NCBI GenBank assembly: GCA_964426185.1
Contig: CAYRPF010000005.1
Span: 38,997-70,996 of the forward strand
DNA: 32,000 nucleotides
Reading direction: 5' to 3'
DNA from: an uncultured archaeon
GTDB taxonomy: Archaea; Asgardarchaeota; Lokiarchaeia; Sigyniarchaeales; Promethearchaeaceae
Notes under the pieces: model-generated
The model's input: the letters and a program-made list of their open reading frames with translations, nothing else
The model's database searches: none
Told to the model about the DNA's origin: nothing
Program-made: the position numbers and the translations under genes
Shown: positions 5,712-17,286 of the stretch, one piece after another
Position numbering within the stretch: position 1 is the stretch's first letter
How the letters are laid out: every line of letters begins with the position of its first letter

Positions 5712-6731
5712 TTAAAGATTGATCTTTAATCGATTTATTCGCTGAATAAGTGCTGTGATTACCAAAGGAAATCCTATAGTACTATCGACCCAGACACTTT
5801 GATGTTTTGCATTTACAGCATATTTTCCCCACGAAATGCTTTCAGAAATAGTGCAACCCGACAACCCTCCATCATATTGAACAGCAGTATGAAAACGAAC
5901 GCTGAAATTATATCCATCGTAAATTCGGGCATCATTCGATTGGTGCATCTGATCTAAGTAGGGAAAAATTTGCTGTGCCCAATTACGGGGTACACCACCG
6001 CCTAAAATAATCGAACCCGCTTGGTTATATTTTGAAATGTAATCTGCAAAAATGGGAATATCGCCCAGTTCATCAATGATAATTTGAATGTTGTTTCGTT
6101 TTCGATACTTAACTAAATTCAATCCCAATTCAGAATCCGATAATGCTCCACAAAAGATAGGAACGTTATACTTAGCCGTTAACGAAATAAAACTCCTACC
6201 GGGTAAATTTTCTCCTAAAATGCGTAGAAATTCGGAAGGAGTTTGCGTGTATATCTCATTTGGTTTGTAAAATTTTTGAATTAGTTTTAACAAACCTTTT
6301 TCGGCCTTAGCATAGTTGTCTTCAGGTAGAAAAGTATCATAAATACGATTAATGCGGTGTTTGAATAAATCTGGGTCGTTTACTTTCTCAGAACCGATAA
6401 AGTGTCCTTGATGTGCTTGATCTGGATCAAAAACATTCACAATTGAATGAATAAGATTCGCTCCAGTAGTAACTATCGCATCAATTATTTTATATTCGAT
6501 AGCTTGATTGATAACTTCCTCCATTCCAGCTGGTATCATTGCCCCAGCTAAGGTAAGAACTTTAAAGCAATTAGGAGTATTTACCATATTTGTTAAAACT
6601 TCCAAAGCTCTCCCTAAATTTCTACCTTGAAAAGAGCAAGATTGCAAATTTACTAATGCTTCTTCCACAGTATTTACCGATTTGGGATTAAAGGGTTTGA
6701 TTTTCGATTGTAAATATTCTTCCTTTCGCAT
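5712..6731 (-). CDS. dys: Deoxyhypusine synthase family protein
   Basis: SFQGRNLG, LAGAMIPAG, IVTTGANL, RINRIYDT, DSELG, GGGVPRN, DGGLSGC..SESISWGK (catalytic Lys); ATG 6731 preferred because ATG 6746 abuts the TATA-like motif. Confidence 0.9.
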   Translation of the reverse strand: MRKEEYLQSKIKPFNPKSVNTVEEALVNLQSCSFQGRNLGRALEVLTNMVNTPNCFKVLTLAGAMIPAGMEEVINQAIEYKIIDAIVTTGANLIHSIVNVFDPDQAHQGHFIGSEKVNDPDLFKHRINRIYDTFLPEDNYAKAEKGLLKLIQKFYKPNEIYTQTPSEFLRILGENLPGRSFISLTAKYNVPIFCGALSDSELGLNLVKYRKRNNIQIIIDELGDIPIFADYISKYNQAGSIILGGGVPRNWAQQIFPYLDQMHQSNDARIYDGYNFSVRFHTAVQYDGGLSGCTISESISWGKYAVNAKHQSVWVDSTIGFPLVITALIQRINRLKINL

Positions 6732-6748
6732 TTGCAAACACTTCATTT

Positions 6749-6758
6749 GAGTTAAAAA
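6749..6758 (-). promoter_or_regulatory. TATA-like promoter element TTTTTAACTC (likely leaderless DHS transcript)
   Basis: Repeated 10-mer, ~20-27 nt upstream of ATG 6731. Confidence 0.5.
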
Positions 6759-6822
6759 AAAATTTAATTAAAATAAAATTTGAACTCAATTAGAACTTAT
6801 TTAAGGCGTAATTCAAGCACTT

Positions 6823-7368
6823 TTAGAGCACAAATACAGCAGCGGATAATACGGTGGTAAATTCTTCATCTTTTTCCACGACCGCTGTGGAAGTATGAGA
6901 CTTTGTCTCTACGATCTTGTCACTCATTAAAAATATTTTTCGTCTTTTATCGTAATCTTCATCAGGATCAAACGGAATTCCAAGAGAAGATGCAAGCATG
7001 GTAGCTGCTAAATCTTCAGCAAAATCACTGGCTGTTTGTTCATCTTGACCAAAAGAGTGATGTTCACTTAAATAACCATAATGTTTTTCATCTTTTGGTT
7101 TCGCTACGCCAATTGAGGCAGAAATCAAGCGATTTATTTCACTAGAGCAATGCCTGGCTAAAACCGAGTAAACAATTTGCCCAGGTTTCAGCATTTTCAA
7201 ACCTTCTTCTCTACTTATTTCAATACAATTAGGAGGGAATATTGAAGATACTTGAACTATATTCAGTGTTGAAATACCTGCATCGCGTAAAGCCTCTTCA
7301 AAGGATTGCAGTTCTTTCTTGGCACGTCCTACGCCTTTCGTGAAAAACACATATTTTGGAATCATCAT
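6823..7368 (-). CDS. pdaD: Pyruvoyl-dependent arginine decarboxylase
   Basis: FFTKGVG, SFEEALRDAGI, NIVQVSSIFPP (Ser-Ser autocleavage site), YGYLSEH, AEDLAATML. Confidence 0.93.
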   Translation of the reverse strand: MMIPKYVFFTKGVGRAKKELQSFEEALRDAGISTLNIVQVSSIFPPNCIEISREEGLKMLKPGQIVYSVLARHCSSEINRLISASIGVAKPKDEKHYGYLSEHHSFGQDEQTASDFAEDLAATMLASSLGIPFDPDEDYDKRRKIFLMSDKIVETKSHTSTAVVEKDEEFTTVLSAAVFVL

Positions 7369-10332: not shown

Positions 10333-10377
10333 AGGAGAAAAAAATAGTAAAACACAGGCAGAAGTAGAAAAACGGTT

Positions 10378-10650
10378 TCATTCTGCTGCTAGAATATCTG
10401 CTGCTGTTATACGCTTTCGTTTTTCTGCTTTTACTATTTTCAAAGCATCTTTTGTAACCTTTGTTCCCAATTTTTCTAGTTGCTCAATTAACATGCTCAC
10501 AGCATCTTCGGCAACTAATTTCGCTCCTTCGGCCTTCATTAGACGTCGCATGGGGGCTTTGGCAATATGTCCTCCGCTTTTTACTGCGGGTTTTTTCTTT
10601 GCAGCCGCTTTCTTTTTCGGCTTAACTTTTGTTGCTCTTTTTTTAGCCAT
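10378..10650 (-). CDS. Archaeal histone-fold protein (HMf-like) with Lys-rich N-terminal tail, 90 aa
   Basis: AKAPMRRLMKAEGAKLVAEDA...KRKRITAADI aligns by eye to HMfB (PIAPIGRIIKDAGAERVSDDA...GRKTIKAEDI); ATG 10650 with AAGTGAT SD-like motif; TTTATA box at 10701-10710. Confidence 0.9.
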   Translation of the reverse strand: MAKKRATKVKPKKKAAAKKKPAVKSGGHIAKAPMRRLMKAEGAKLVAEDAVSMLIEQLEKLGTKVTKDALKIVKAEKRKRITAADILAAE

Positions 10651-10691
10651 AATAATCACTTTTATTTGAGTAAAAAAGGTAGATCTCCGCG

Positions 10692-10722
10692 AATAAGGAG
10701 TAATATAAATATTCCCCTTATT
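10692..10722 (-). promoter_or_regulatory. Histone promoter TATA box embedded in an imperfect palindrome
   Basis: AATAAGGAGTAATAT-AA-ATATTCCCCTTATT; minus strand reads ATTTATATTA at the centre. Confidence 0.45.
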
Positions 10723-10905
10723 TTGATTAACTAACTTTGCCCTTTTAAATGTTGTCGCCGAAGAGTGAAATTTCTTACGCAATAACTCTGATCATCCGAA
10801 TTAATTCCGACATATTACGACTTTGCACGCAATATTTGAAATTTTTTTTATTCGATGAATGGAATCTGAATTCATAAAAGGGGTGTCGAAGATATCATAA
10901 TATAT

Positions 10906-12852: not shown

Positions 12853-15800
12853 ATGTTCTTGAATGTATTCCAATTAACAGATTTTCTTCTCAATAATTTA
12901 AATTCCTTTCTTATCGGTTTAAATACTCTAATCGGTATCATTATTTTTATTCGGATGATGGCTCATTCAAGGCAAGAATTAAAAACAGCCCCTCGTTATA
13001 ACATTTTTCAGAAAGCCAGTAATTTTTTCGGAGCATTTTCTTACTCATTAATGGTTTCATTAACCGTGGTTTTTATCATTGCGTTGATATCTTCAATGAT
13101 TGCTGTCAATGCACTTTATTATATCAATAATTTCAGAAGGGAATTCGCCAACTATAATCAGCTAATTGCCACTTTTCAATATCCCGTATTTCTTCCTACT
13201 ATTCTTGTGTTAATGGCAGCATTTGCTGTATTTTATTCTCTTTTAGAATATCTTTTAATGGCCCAGCCCTCTCAGGATGCTCCAATGGAGATTCAACGAT
13301 GGATTGAAAAAACATTTATCGATCGATTTCGTCCTCCTTGGAGTTATCTTGTAGCCTTTATTATATTTGTGGTAATTGTTTTGCTTGCTCCATTTATTAC
13401 AGCTCGATTATCTCTTCAGCTTTGGACCAATTTTCCTCCTAATGCAAAAATATGGTTAATTATCTTGATTTTTATGAGTTGGATTATGTTGGGACCAATT
13501 TTTTATCTTTCTTACTATTCCCAAATTGGAATTGTTCAAGCATATTTCCGTGGGCGTAAAATCAACAAGAAGAAAGATAAAAAAGGTGCCTTTTTCTACT
13601 ACATTGCACTTTTAGGGATTTTCATGACAGTTTATTCTTTCATTAAAATCCTAATATTAATTTTTGATGCTCGACCTGACACTGCATTAAATCCATTAGA
13701 TGCACAAGGTGATTTTTGGCCCATTATTTTTAAATTTATTAAGGAAAGAAGTGGATTGTTAACTCAAGAGCAAATACAAGCAATTCTTGCATTTTTTGCT
13801 ATTTTTCCGCTTGGTTTTTCCAGTTTCATCTTAACAACTATTATTTTTGGTTTGGTTGGATTTTACGCCAAGTTTCTCAGTAAAGAACCGTTAAATACCC
13901 CAAAAATGATACTTTTCGCCGCTTACATCATTACGGGTATTGCATTTTCAATTTTCATTAATACAATTGTCAATTTTCCCTATACATTTCCTACACAGTT
14001 TCTAAATTCAATTGGATTTCCTCTAACTACCAGAAACATAAATGATCAAATATTGCTGTTAAGGATTTTTGCAATTCCCTTATTGATGGAAAAAACTATT
14101 AATCTAATATTTTTGATCAATTTCTTGTTTTTAAACAAATCTCTCAAACAACAGATGGAAAAACTTGTCTTAAATCAAGCTATAACTAACGAGGATTTTG
14201 AAATTTTTCAAAAATATCTTAATCATAGGGATCCTTCCATACGTTTGAAGTTATTCATTCATTTGGTTGATTACATTAATCTTGATCCCACAATGACCGA
14301 TCAAGCTAGAGATCAATTATCAAATATTTTTGAACGCTTTATTTTTGATGAAGATCCGAATATAAATCAGATGTTTATAGAGAATTCGGCAAAAATTACC
14401 GACCTTTTTACTTTATCAAGCCAGTTAAACTTGTGTTATCGGTTGATTGCTAAGGAATCTCCACAATCAATCAATATGGGCTTTAATTTACTAAAAATAG
14501 CATTACCATATTCACAAAATCTGTCAGACGATGAAAACACACAAATTTTCAAAGTTATGAAGAAAATTGTCTTAAAAAGTTACAACCCTCAAATAAACAA
14601 TTCATTTACTGAATTTTTGAGTAACTTTCGCCGTAGTTTTCCAATACTTACTCGGAAATTAATCATCTCATTTATTCAAGCAACTCCCCGCTTTGAAATA
14701 TTGCTTGGGTTAAATTTTATTTCACAATTTCCAAAATTTGTTCAATCAGACAAAGATATCATCATTTTATCCATTCAAAATCAATTAAAGAAAATGGATT
14801 TAGAAATTATTAAAAATGCTTTACATGCATATATTCGATTTGCGTTAGTTGAAACTTCTTTAATCCCTCAAATAATGACAGAATTTAATCAAATTACCTT
14901 AAATGAAGAGCCCATTATACAAGAAAAAATAGGTGGTATTGTACAGTTTAATTTAATTCATCCAGAATGGTTTGAGCAGTTTTTTGAGTATCTTCGTATT
15001 TACCTTGAAGATTCAAATATTTCAATCAAATCTGATGCATTAATCGCTTGTGGAACTTTAGCTTCACCAGTAAATGAGTTTCAATTCTTTAATTCTATCT
15101 ATCCTTATTTTCTTCAAAATATTCAATCAGAAACAATAGAAATTCGAAAAGCCGTGATATCTTCACTTATTGTCATTGCTCAAACTCGTCCTGATATATA
15201 CAATGACCCAAGGTTTCACAAATTGTTCACTTTTCTCATCGTTGATCCTCGTTCAGAAATTCGACATCAAGTATATCGATTTTTCATCGATGGAGATCCA
15301 GAATATATTGTTCGTGATATAGCAAATTTGTTAGAAACTCCCATAAGTATAGGTGTGCGTGTTGATCTCCTTAATATTTTATCTCAAATTGTACCATCTG
15401 TTATACCTTATGTAGATGATATCGATCTTTACCGTATATTGATGGAACAGCCTTTCTCAAATCAAGAAAATGAAGTAAATATGTCTGTAATTCAAGAATT
15501 GCAGGAAGATAAAACATCTTTGTTTGGATTTCGGAATTTTCAATCTTCGTTTAATCTCTATGACTCAATTGTTGCGTTAATGTATGATTTAACATACTAC
15601 ATTCCAGAAAAATATCATATCCTCGTTGATTTTTATCAAAAACATCAAAAATTGGAAAATGATTTCAGTCTTGCCAAGAAAATAGAATTTTACTCTAAGA
15701 TTATATATGAAGAATTAAGCCTAACCAGAACGGTAGGAATTACTTTTACTTTGGTAAATTTAATTGAGCTTATCCATCAATCTTTCTCGAAAATCCAATA

Positions 15801-17286
15801 TCATTCTACACATATTATTATTCAATATATCTCAAAACTTCTTAAAGTTGCCCCAGGTTTTCATAAAGAATTGTTTGATATTGGTTATAACTTAATTTCG
15901 TTCAAATCTTACATGTCTGATTCGGACAAAGGGACCTTACTCGTCTTTTTTACGGAAATTATTACTCATTCAAGGGGAAATTATATTCAGCCAATTACCA
16001 TTCCAATTTTCTTAAAATCCAAACAAATAACATTAAATCCGTTCGAAAAGGTTCTAAAACCCTTTCTACTCTTCTGCATGAAAAATTCTCACAAACAGAT
16101 GGAAAATTTCATTATGGAATCATTACAGAAAATGATGACTGATTTTTCTGATATATCAAAAATTCAAGATTTTCTGGTTCATATCATTCACCATTCTCAT
16201 GATTCCGAAGTAAAAATATCCGCAATGAAATTTTTCACTTCACTCCCAATTGAAATTAAAAATAGGAAAAATATTTTATTAATTTTGAACCAATTACGTT
16301 CTAAAGATGACAATGTAAAAGCCCAAGCTATAGAATCCATAGGAATCATTCTGCGCGCCTTTCCGACTGTAAACCCTGATGAAAAAGGGCCATATAGTTC
16401 ATATGCTAAAGTTATTCGAGATCTTTTATATAATGCTTTTTATAGTTCTTACAGTATAACTGCTCCGATTCAAATTCGCGCAACAATTATAGCCCATTTA
16501 AAAACCATATTATTGATCCAACCTCATTTTCCAGTTTCTTTGAAAATTCTCGATCAACTCTCTCAAGAACCAGATGAGGTGCTGGCTATTCAAGCAGTTT
16601 CACTACTATTTGATTTTGTTGATTTCCATAAGGAAAAACTTAGTGAAGAATTGGTAATTCTGCATCATTATTCTAATTCCCCATTTGCTTCAGTGCAAAA
16701 GATCATGAGTGAACGTATCGCAGGATTATTTAATGAGAAAGTACATTTGAATGTATTATTTCCCATTATTTTCAATTTAACTACAAGCGATTTCCCTGAA
16801 ATTCGTCAAATGGTATTTAACACCATATTTTTACTGTTTAATCAAGAACCTACTTTACTACCGCAATTTTTCTATAACCTACAAAAATTAACGAAACAAG
16901 TTAACTATGAAATTCGATATGATTCTTTTGAGCTATTGACTAAAATTGTTAATATACTTTCTTTATCAGAAGATTTGATTGGAAAATTTAATGAAACACT
17001 TCTTAGATTATCCATGGATCCCGAAATGGGAATAAAGATCTTCATTTCTCAGAATTTAGTTCATTTAATTCATCGATATCCTCAACATAGTTCCGAGTAT
17101 TTACATATTATTTCGGATTTTATCAGGTTAAATAATTCGGAGATTGTAAAAAATATTATACCCGCTTGTAAAGCGGTTATTCAAGTAAACCAAGAATTCA
17201 AGCCTATATTAGAAAAACGGATTAAAAAGGTGTTTAAGAAAACCCAAAATCCGTTTATCGATACGTTGCTAAAGGAAATTTCTTAG
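12853..17286 (+). CDS. Large membrane-anchored HEAT/ARM-repeat protein (~10 N-terminal TM helices plus ~1000-aa alpha-solenoid)
   Basis: Hydrophobic segments to ~aa 430, then recurring HEAT-like units (NHRDPSIRL, EDSNISIKSDAL, SETIEIRKAVI, DPRSEIRHQV, SKDDNVKAQAI, SDFPEIRQMV, DPEMGIKIFI). Confidence 0.75.
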   Translation: MFLNVFQLTDFLLNNLNSFLIGLNTLIGIIIFIRMMAHSRQELKTAPRYNIFQKASNFFGAFSYSLMVSLTVVFIIALISSMIAVNALYYINNFRREFANYNQLIATFQYPVFLPTILVLMAAFAVFYSLLEYLLMAQPSQDAPMEIQRWIEKTFIDRFRPPWSYLVAFIIFVVIVLLAPFITARLSLQLWTNFPPNAKIWLIILIFMSWIMLGPIFYLSYYSQIGIVQAYFRGRKINKKKDKKGAFFYYIALLGIFMTVYSFIKILILIFDARPDTALNPLDAQGDFWPIIFKFIKERSGLLTQEQIQAILAFFAIFPLGFSSFILTTIIFGLVGFYAKFLSKEPLNTPKMILFAAYIITGIAFSIFINTIVNFPYTFPTQFLNSIGFPLTTRNINDQILLLRIFAIPLLMEKTINLIFLINFLFLNKSLKQQMEKLVLNQAITNEDFEIFQKYLNHRDPSIRLKLFIHLVDYINLDPTMTDQARDQLSNIFERFIFDEDPNINQMFIENSAKITDLFTLSSQLNLCYRLIAKESPQSINMGFNLLKIALPYSQNLSDDENTQIFKVMKKIVLKSYNPQINNSFTEFLSNFRRSFPILTRKLIISFIQATPRFEILLGLNFISQFPKFVQSDKDIIILSIQNQLKKMDLEIIKNALHAYIRFALVETSLIPQIMTEFNQITLNEEPIIQEKIGGIVQFNLIHPEWFEQFFEYLRIYLEDSNISIKSDALIACGTLASPVNEFQFFNSIYPYFLQNIQSETIEIRKAVISSLIVIAQTRPDIYNDPRFHKLFTFLIVDPRSEIRHQVYRFFIDGDPEYIVRDIANLLETPISIGVRVDLLNILSQIVPSVIPYVDDIDLYRILMEQPFSNQENEVNMSVIQELQEDKTSLFGFRNFQSSFNLYDSIVALMYDLTYYIPEKYHILVDFYQKHQKLENDFSLAKKIEFYSKIIYEELSLTRTVGITFTLVNLIELIHQSFSKIQYHSTHIIIQYISKLLKVAPGFHKELFDIGYNLISFKSYMSDSDKGTLLVFFTEIITHSRGNYIQPITIPIFLKSKQITLNPFEKVLKPFLLFCMKNSHKQMENFIMESLQKMMTDFSDISKIQDFLVHIIHHSHDSEVKISAMKFFTSLPIEIKNRKNILLILNQLRSKDDNVKAQAIESIGIILRAFPTVNPDEKGPYSSYAKVIRDLLYNAFYSSYSITAPIQIRATIIAHLKTILLIQPHFPVSLKILDQLSQEPDEVLAIQAVSLLFDFVDFHKEKLSEELVILHHYSNSPFASVQKIMSERIAGLFNEKVHLNVLFPIIFNLTTSDFPEIRQMVFNTIFLLFNQEPTLLPQFFYNLQKLTKQVNYEIRYDSFELLTKIVNILSLSEDLIGKFNETLLRLSMDPEMGIKIFISQNLVHLIHRYPQHSSEYLHIISDFIRLNNSEIVKNIIPACKAVIQVNQEFKPILEKRIKKVFKKTQNPFIDTLLKEIS

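Follow-up and report, generated by a model that had tools for sequence, protein, structure and literature searches.

A lysine-rich tailed histone of the HLoB type in an uncultured, Harpocratesius-like lineage of Lokiarchaeia

A short gene on the minus strand of an archaeal contig appears to encode a histone preceded by a long, lysine-rich tail. Is that tail truly translated, to which histones does the protein belong, and could the tail be a substrate for regulatory modification rather than simply a source of positive charge? The gene lies in a 32,000-nucleotide stretch of DNA, the whole of which we refer to as the window. The genome from which it derives (G000; 3.26 Mb, 92% complete, 34% GC) is Harpocratesius-like and belongs to the Promethearchaeia, alias Lokiarchaeia, and the stretch is present in hydrothermal-vent and marine-sediment metagenomes. 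The coding sequence is complete at 10378–10650 on the minus strand, running through 90 codons from the ATG at 10650–10648 to a TGA at 10380–10378. Codons 1–27 (10570–10650, minus) specify the Lys/Ala/Pro-rich N-terminal tail, which is predicted to be disordered, and codons 28–90 (10381–10569, minus) a histone fold assigned to the HLoB type by HMMER alignments to HMfA and HMfB, a family alignment, and comparison of the HLoA and HLoB classes introduced below.

A sequence-only reading of this DNA had described a 27-residue tail with 11 Lys, 1 Arg, and no acidic residue ahead of the fold, and translation of the minus-strand frame reproduces that description exactly: residues 1–27 comprise 11 Lys (41%), 1 Arg, 6 Ala, and 2 Pro, with no Asp or Glu, and close with S-G-G before His28. 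The same reading had pointed to a Gly-Gly hinge. The hinge is indeed present here, but it is specific to the genus; in other relatives R-S-A, E-G, or similar residues precede the aromatic residue that opens the fold. N-termini of this kind are rare in the genome. Of 4404 ORFs that start with ATG and span 60 aa or more, only four combine 12 or more Lys plus Arg with an absence of Asp and Glu in their first 27 residues, and the composition of the tail is more than chance would supply at 34% GC.

The globular portion of the protein is matched by Pfam PF00808 over residues 31–89 (E 9.1e-10; 39.1 bits, cut-off 21.4) and by the NCBIfam archaea_histone model, NF043032 (53.3 bits, cut-off 50), while HMfA from the PDB is alignable over residues 27–88 (E 1.8e-6). 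Henneman et al. (2018; PMC6136690) set out residue criteria that include the Arg52–Asp59 pair, the DNA-contacting Arg10 and Lys53, and the stacking Gly16. Counterparts of all of these are present in the protein encoded here, as the intramonomer pair Arg78–Asp85 and as Arg36, Lys79, and Gly42; in the family alignment Arg36, Gly42, Lys79, and Asp85 are invariant and Arg78 is conserved in at least 90% of members. Judged by profile and by residue, the predicted protein is an archaeal nucleosomal histone. It shares its fold and the equivalents of Arg10, Gly16, Arg52–Asp59, and Lys53 with HMfA and HMfB of Methanothermus fervidus (PDB 1HTA, 1A7W, and 5T5K), but differs from them in its 27-aa tail, in four substitutions considered below (His49 to Ala, Leu62 to Ala, Arg19 to Leu, and Thr54 to Arg), and in a chain that ends five residues earlier after α3. 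An AlphaFold2 monomer model, computed from a 40-sequence alignment, assigns block-mean pLDDT values of 46–51 and no secondary structure to the tail, and pLDDT values of 90–95 to α2 and α3. The model fuses α1 into α2 (H34–75), a merger that is expected because the histone was folded without a partner, and we have used it for tail disorder only.

Is the tail made as read? In-frame methionines at positions 34 and 38, together with a TTG at 10782 that opens a longer frame of 134 aa, allow that the start has been mis-called and that the annotated N-terminus is an artefact, a reading that evidence from the family renders scarcely credible. In the genomes of 30 relatives the best match invariably opens ATG-GCN-AAR-AAR (MAKK in 27), and in all 30 a Lys/Ala/Pro tail of 5–36 aa is followed by [YFH]-I-A-K-A-P-I-R-R-L-M; conservation of the tail among orthologs, on which the sequence-only reading depended, therefore holds. 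The internal-Met start that would have undone that reading finds no support. All 39 aligned relatives have Ile at the position of Met34, and the next methionine, Met38, sits within helix α1 behind an invariant A-P-x-R-R that initiation there would delete. The longer TTG frame is not conserved, because G001, a genome of the same genus, has a stop just two codons ahead of the ATG. A Shine-Dalgarno-like GTGAT at 10655–10659 (minus), a putative ribosome-binding site 4 nt upstream of the ATG, fits the 3′ end of the 16S rRNA of this genome, GGATCACCTCCT, and GTGAT or GGAGG stands 4–10 nt before the ATG in nearly all HLoB and HLoA genes of the relatives.

Close relatives of the same genus are equally instructive. 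The genes in G001 (82% identical) and G002 are syntenic orthologs because their neighborhoods match: the divergent neighbor in both is a diacylglycerol-kinase-like gene, and a GDPD gene is also present in G002. Their tails are 32 and 20 aa long, and the tail indels that separate them from the gene under study, of 15 and 18 nt, are in frame. In Candidatus Lokiarchaeum ossiferum, mass spectrometry has recovered the N-terminal peptide AKKKTPAKK of the tailed histone HLoB.2, with the initiator Met removed (10.64898/2026.07.02.735847); the HLoB.2 gene that we extracted from the genome of that organism begins exactly as the reported peptide does (MAKKKTPAKK). The 134-aa ORF started by TTG and the starts at Met34 and Met38 are rejected by the G001 stop and the family alignment, and the tail is translated sequence, not the product of a mis-called start.

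Candidate expression signals flank the gene. TTTATAT at 10703–10709 (minus), a proximal TATA-like box and possible promoter, lies 13 nt before GCGGAGAT (10683–10690), and the arrangement TTTATAT...GGAGGAT also occurs upstream of L. ossiferum HLoB.2 and of an HLoB gene in G011, and in degenerate form in G001. Farther upstream, GACAACATTTAAAAG at 10742–10756 (minus) is a distal BRE/TATA-like element and likewise a candidate promoter, conserved among G000, G001, and G002 within a spacer that has otherwise diverged. A BRE/TATA-like motif, (A/C)AAC-ATTTAAAT, is found 60–135 nt upstream of most HLoA and HLoB starts in G000, G001, G011, and the L. ossiferum genome, which implies either unusually long 5′ UTRs led by Shine-Dalgarno motifs or tandem promoters. 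Archaeal RNA polymerase terminates at oligo-T tracts, and two such tracts that follow the stop codon and precede the next gene, T5 at 10368–10372 and T7 at 10338–10344 (together spanning 10338–10372, minus), form a possible terminator. Elsewhere in the window, genes for deoxyhypusine synthase and a pyruvoyl-dependent arginine decarboxylase lie side by side at 5712–7368 (minus), an ordinary polyamine and hypusine gene pair, and 12853–17286 (plus) encodes a 1477-aa HEAT-repeat protein with a weak adaptin-N-like match below the Pfam cut-off, possibly an Asgard eukaryote-like protein of interest.

Tailed Asgard histones are not new. [quoted passage not shown] HLoB proteins are distinguished there by a disordered N-terminal tail of ∼16–32 aa with more than 30% Lys, and the tail described here, with 27 aa, 41% Lys, and pLDDT values of 46–51, is of precisely this kind. 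Among named proteins, the closest are a "histone" of Candidatus Harpocratesius sp. and NEF87_003938 of L. ossiferum. The L. ossiferum genome in our set (G010) contains three tailed genes, which correspond letter for letter to the HLoB.1, HLoB.2, and HLoB.3 reference sequences in Supplementary Table 2 of Cho et al., and the histone in the window is 71% identical to HLoB.2 and 60% identical to HLoB.1 of L. ossiferum B35. It falls in the same clade as these two and shares with them the MAKK start, a Lys/Ala/Pro tail of similar length, the motifs I-A-K-A-P-I-R-R-L-M and K-R-K-R-x-T-A-A-D-I, and a short C-terminus ending A-A-E, near the antibody epitope RKRVTAADVIAAE. The differences are that the tails are not alignable residue by residue and that His28 and Met34 here take the place of the usual Tyr/Phe and Ile. 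In a tree of the fold, tailed HLoB and untailed HLoA proteins split with support of 100/99 (HLoB branch 1.58), and a one-to-one ortholog is not separated among HLoB.1 and HLoB.2. HLoA proteins, such as that encoded at G000:C5:36309-36485, have the same fold and a MAKK-type start, but only 3–6 residues before a fold that carries the motif F-A-W-S-P. By these comparisons of sequence, the gene is an HLoB-type tailed histone of Lokiarchaeia.

The genome as a whole carries eight PF00808 genes, three tailed (HLoB-type) and five untailed (HLoA-type, with F-A-W-S-P), and one HLoC-type gene in addition. The other tailed histones are encoded at C30:33985-34227 (21-aa tail) and C26:35521-35760 (47-aa tail). 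Contig C5 bears one gene each of HLoC, HLoA, and HLoB within 26 kb, the first of these a divergent HLoC-type histone (G000:C5:23584-23811, minus) that is 72% identical to HLoC.1 of L. ossiferum. Directly after the HLoA gene on this contig lies a degraded histone-like frame (L005:1690-1917, plus) that has no start and has lost α1; it probably derives from a tandem duplicate that has decayed, contigs C34 and C53 showing such pairs intact. More elaborate architectures occur among the representative hits. P0024 (374 aa) strings four histone folds in one chain ahead of a C-terminal Cys cluster, and P0039 (649 aa) bears an HLoB-like fold at its end, preceded by a long N-terminal part of unrelated sequence; both are histone fusions akin to the HLoB family. 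Contig C2 encodes a 219-aa protein (G000:C2:64357-65019; L086:1358-2017, minus) whose N-terminal tail, rich in Lys, Thr, and Ser, extends for ∼65 aa and exceeds every histone tail described here; its C-terminal part bears Cys. A Pfam search with this protein returned no match, and its language-model neighbors are archaeal winged-helix regulators (score 0.91), which we take as a lead only.

While the fold is recognizably that of a histone, its capacity for higher-order assembly is less easily read. Henneman et al. (PMC6136690) attribute the dimer–dimer interface for tetramers and hypernucleosomes to Leu46, His49, Asp59, and Leu62 of HMfB. The corresponding residues here are Ile72, Ala75, Asp85, and Ala88: the Leu46 site, as Ile, and the aspartate are kept, while His49 and Leu62 are replaced, so that an HMfB-like tetramer interface is not reproduced in full. 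At the DNA-binding loops, Arg19 of L1 is replaced by Leu45, invariant in HLoB, and Thr54 of L2 by Arg80, found in at least 90% of HLoB proteins; the paired-loop DNA site thereby retains a basic residue, on the other loop. HLoA proteins have Ile or Met at the Arg19 site and Lys at the Thr54 site. Across all HLoA and HLoB genes at loci L001–L008 and L044–L073, both classes carry a hydrophobic residue at the former site and Lys or Arg at the latter, and because it is shared with HLoA this replacement is a trait of the lineage rather than of HLoB. Since His49, Leu62, and the L1 arginine are absent, HMfB-like assembly cannot be assumed. The missing residues lower the claim that the predicted protein assembles like HMfB, not the claim that it is a histone.

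The two classes divide at the tetramerization histidine. The His49 position is never His in 36 of 36 genome-derived HLoB proteins, where Ala, Asp, Gly, Lys, Thr, and Glu are seen, and is His in 23 of 23 aligned HLoA proteins; position 62 is Leu or Met in the latter and variable in the HLoB family. Loss of the histidine follows clade rather than tail length, because short-tailed HLoB members also lack it. When 146 proteins are tabulated by tail and by His49, the result is descriptive only, the set having been chosen by likeness to the query and its members being kin. A multimer model of two HLoA and two HLoB cores scored 0.68 against 0.16 for the best control, a mark reached also by 58 of 80 solved complexes and by 2 of 110 mismatched pairs, counts that hold only roughly, since alignments of our own making were supplied to the model. 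Between runs, at least 99% of contacts agree, partner pLDDT is at least 92, and the contact pattern is that of HLoA:HLoB heterodimers in a handshake, though homodimers were possible. No confident contact is listed for HLoB residues 72–76, and an unlisted residue is not thereby free; the output omits contacts between copies of one chain and cannot tell tetramer formation. The favorable score may reflect likeness to, or memory of, solved histone dimers.

What might the tail be for? The most direct evidence comes from L. ossiferum, for which Cho et al. (10.64898/2026.07.02.735847) report lysine methylation of HLoB tails in vivo. Methylation is the dominant mark there, and no complete methylation pathway was identified. 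In vitro, LoHAT2 acetylates HLoB.2 tail peptides and LoSIR2b removes the acetyl groups, and both enzymes also act on the yeast H4 tail; in vivo, tail acetylation was detected once only, and no reader domains were found. In two Asgard lineages, tail peptides bearing modifications were enriched relative to those without. The earlier proposal that this gene encodes a candidate PTM-regulated histone is in agreement with these reports on its relatives, in respect of both the methylation seen in vivo and the activity of LoHAT2 and LoSIR2b in vitro, although the single observation of acetylation in vivo and the lack of reader domains leave any regulatory function of these marks a proposal. The genome under study contains one SIR2 gene and three HDAC-family genes as eraser candidates, along with many GNATs. 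SIR2 and HDAC-family genes lend little weight because they are also common in control prokaryote genomes. The SET family (PF00856) was not found in this 92%-complete genome, and neither was MOZ_SAS (PF01853), in a search that also matched no control genome and so says little.

One GNAT gene has a physical link to a tailed histone. Among the representative hits, the metagenomic protein P0029 runs a tailed histone together with a GNAT domain, and its GNAT part, used as a query, retrieves a single gene in the genome, C26:35950-36366. This gene follows the 47-aa-tailed, HLoB.3-type paralog on the same strand, 190 bp downstream; in locus coordinates the pair, which is outside the window, occupies L001:1351-1689 (histone) and L001:1858-2277 (GNAT), both plus. 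The pair is present in four genomes (G000, G001, G002, and L. ossiferum), and in G011 and G007 a tailed histone and the GNAT are ∼1.5 kb apart; at eight GNAT loci fetched from the other family of the order, no histone was found. The encoded protein, of 139 aa, is YpeA/RimI-like, with N-α-acetyltransferases among its solved relatives. Its L. ossiferum ortholog, GNAMCCOK_03972, adjoins HLoB.3 (GNAMCCOK_03971) and is among the 63 candidate writers of the preprint, but is neither LoHAT1 nor LoHAT2, the two that were tested there (10.64898/2026.07.02.735847). The words "adjacent," "operon," and "synteny" are absent from the main text of that preprint, in which "neighbo-" occurs once, in the MD methods, with reference to DNA turns. 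We regard the C26 GNAT as a candidate dedicated tail or N-terminal acetyltransferase, as a lead and not a result.

These observations can be arranged in more than one way. The loss of His49 throughout HLoB and its retention throughout HLoA, the Ala at a variable position 62, and the modeled HLoA:HLoB heterodimers, with no confident contact at residues 72–76, could together mean that the four-helix-bundle face of HLoB is disabled. HLoB would then pair with HLoA, or stack only beside it, and would cap or punctuate hypernucleosomes, leaving tail-bearing subunits at their ends. There is precedent in the capstone histones of Stevens et al. (2020; PMC7776873), which stop oligomer growth and for which a non-His residue 49, acidic or hydrophobic, serves as the marker. 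Ala75 is such a residue; tailed histones were excluded from the models of that study. The capstones Msp_0383 and Msm_1260 (PMC7776873) resemble HLoB in bearing a non-His residue 49 at the dimer–dimer interface, but they are tail-less, lowly expressed proteins of Methanobacteriales whose instability was seen by MD, whereas HLoB is very abundant in cultured Loki (10.64898/2026.07.02.735847). Moreover, in the preprint the best AlphaFold3 assembly has HLoB.2 within a particle of nucleosome-like form, and the MD simulations were run on hypernucleosomes of HLoB.2. On balance an assembly-limiting role strikes us as doubtful. The same must be said of a more elaborate proposal, improbable in our estimation, in which HLoB is both tailed and deficient in its tetramer face, an HLoA:HLoB heterodimer presents one competent and one incompetent face to cap or phase hypernucleosomes with modifiable tails at their ends, and the linked GNAT is the dedicated writer. 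If this were true, the division of labor between HLoA and HLoB would recall that between H3/H4, which keep the histidine, and H2A/H2B, which have lost it, in the eukaryotic octamer.

A plainer account holds that the tail does no more than clamp DNA through its charge and aid compaction, like Lys/Ala/Pro tails in H1 or mycobacterial HupB, that it grew by frame extension into AT-rich upstream DNA, and that its lysine marks are incidental. Among 36 unique HLoB proteins the tails range from 5 to 48 aa and have a pooled composition of 38% Lys, 22% Ala, 8% Pro, and less than 4% Asp plus Glu. Their composition is kept and their sequence and length are not, and because composition alone is conserved, a plain electrostatic role stays a serious rival to signaling. 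A genome of 34% GC makes AAA and AAG codons cheap, a review (PMC10919886) calls such tails "easy come, easy go," and the lone in vivo acetylation and the want of reader domains in the preprint point the same way. An incidental polycation sits less comfortably with the enrichment of modified over unmodified peptides in two Asgard lineages, with enzymes that act on the tail in vitro, with retention of a tail by each of the three HLoB lineages in this genome and order-wide, and with the GNAT gene linked to one tailed paralog in four genomes; we consider it possible, if somewhat unlikely. Likeness to eukaryotic histones can be taken too far in the other direction. The sequence-only reading had compared the tail with AKP-rich tails of the H2B/H1 type, and in composition the comparison is apt: the C-terminal domain of eukaryotic H1 and the N-terminal tails of H2B and H4 are also disordered, lysine-dominated, and nearly without acidic residues, and GNAT and sirtuin enzymes act on lysines in tails of this sort. 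It goes no further than composition, since there is no sequence homology, no alignable tail, no S/T-P-K-K motif, and no winged-helix globular domain of H1, and the linker-histone family is absent from the Pfam matches of this protein. True homology to a eukaryotic tailed histone (H2B or H4) or to linker histone H1 would have to draw on that H1-like composition, on a PF00125 match over residues 3–89 that at 26.4 bits lies exactly at the cut-off and is weaker than that of PF00808, and on the stretch K-R-K-R-[IV]-T-A-x-D-I, which recalls K-R-K-T-V-T-A-M-D-V of H4. Set against these are best matches that are archaeal histones, a position nested in a Lokiarchaeial clade, the missing linker-histone domain, and tails that cannot be aligned even among HLoB proteins. 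Published analyses, including PMC10919886, regard histone tails as convergent, and we judge such homology highly improbable.

The reading that we prefer, and that we consider very likely as a whole, is that of an HLoB-type nucleosomal histone that pairs through its fold, bends DNA, and carries a modifiable, disordered tail. Residues 28–90 would form a histone fold that, by homology, should pair hand in hand with a second fold, either of its own kind or of an untailed HLoA paralog, and each dimer would bind and bend ∼30 bp of DNA within histone–DNA assemblies. Residues 1–27 would project from the fold as a disordered, polycationic tail, adding DNA affinity and charge neutralization and offering lysines to modifying enzymes, as has been shown for the L. 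ossiferum relatives. The genome itself supplies plausible erasers, in the SIR2 gene and the three HDAC-family genes, and many GNATs, one of which adjoins a paralogous tailed histone.

The HLoB family, its tails, and their modifications have already been published, and the gene confirms known work and opens no new question. It does add a well-supported HLoB member from an uncultured, vent- and sediment-associated, Harpocratesius-like lineage, in which the complete HLoA, HLoB, and HLoC set is retained. Two features of that set, the strict split between HLoB and HLoA at the tetramerization histidine and the conserved pairing of a tailed histone gene with a GNAT gene, may deserve attention in future work on Loki chromatin. 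More broadly, tailed Asgard histones such as this one bear on the origin of modifiable chromatin before eukaryotes.
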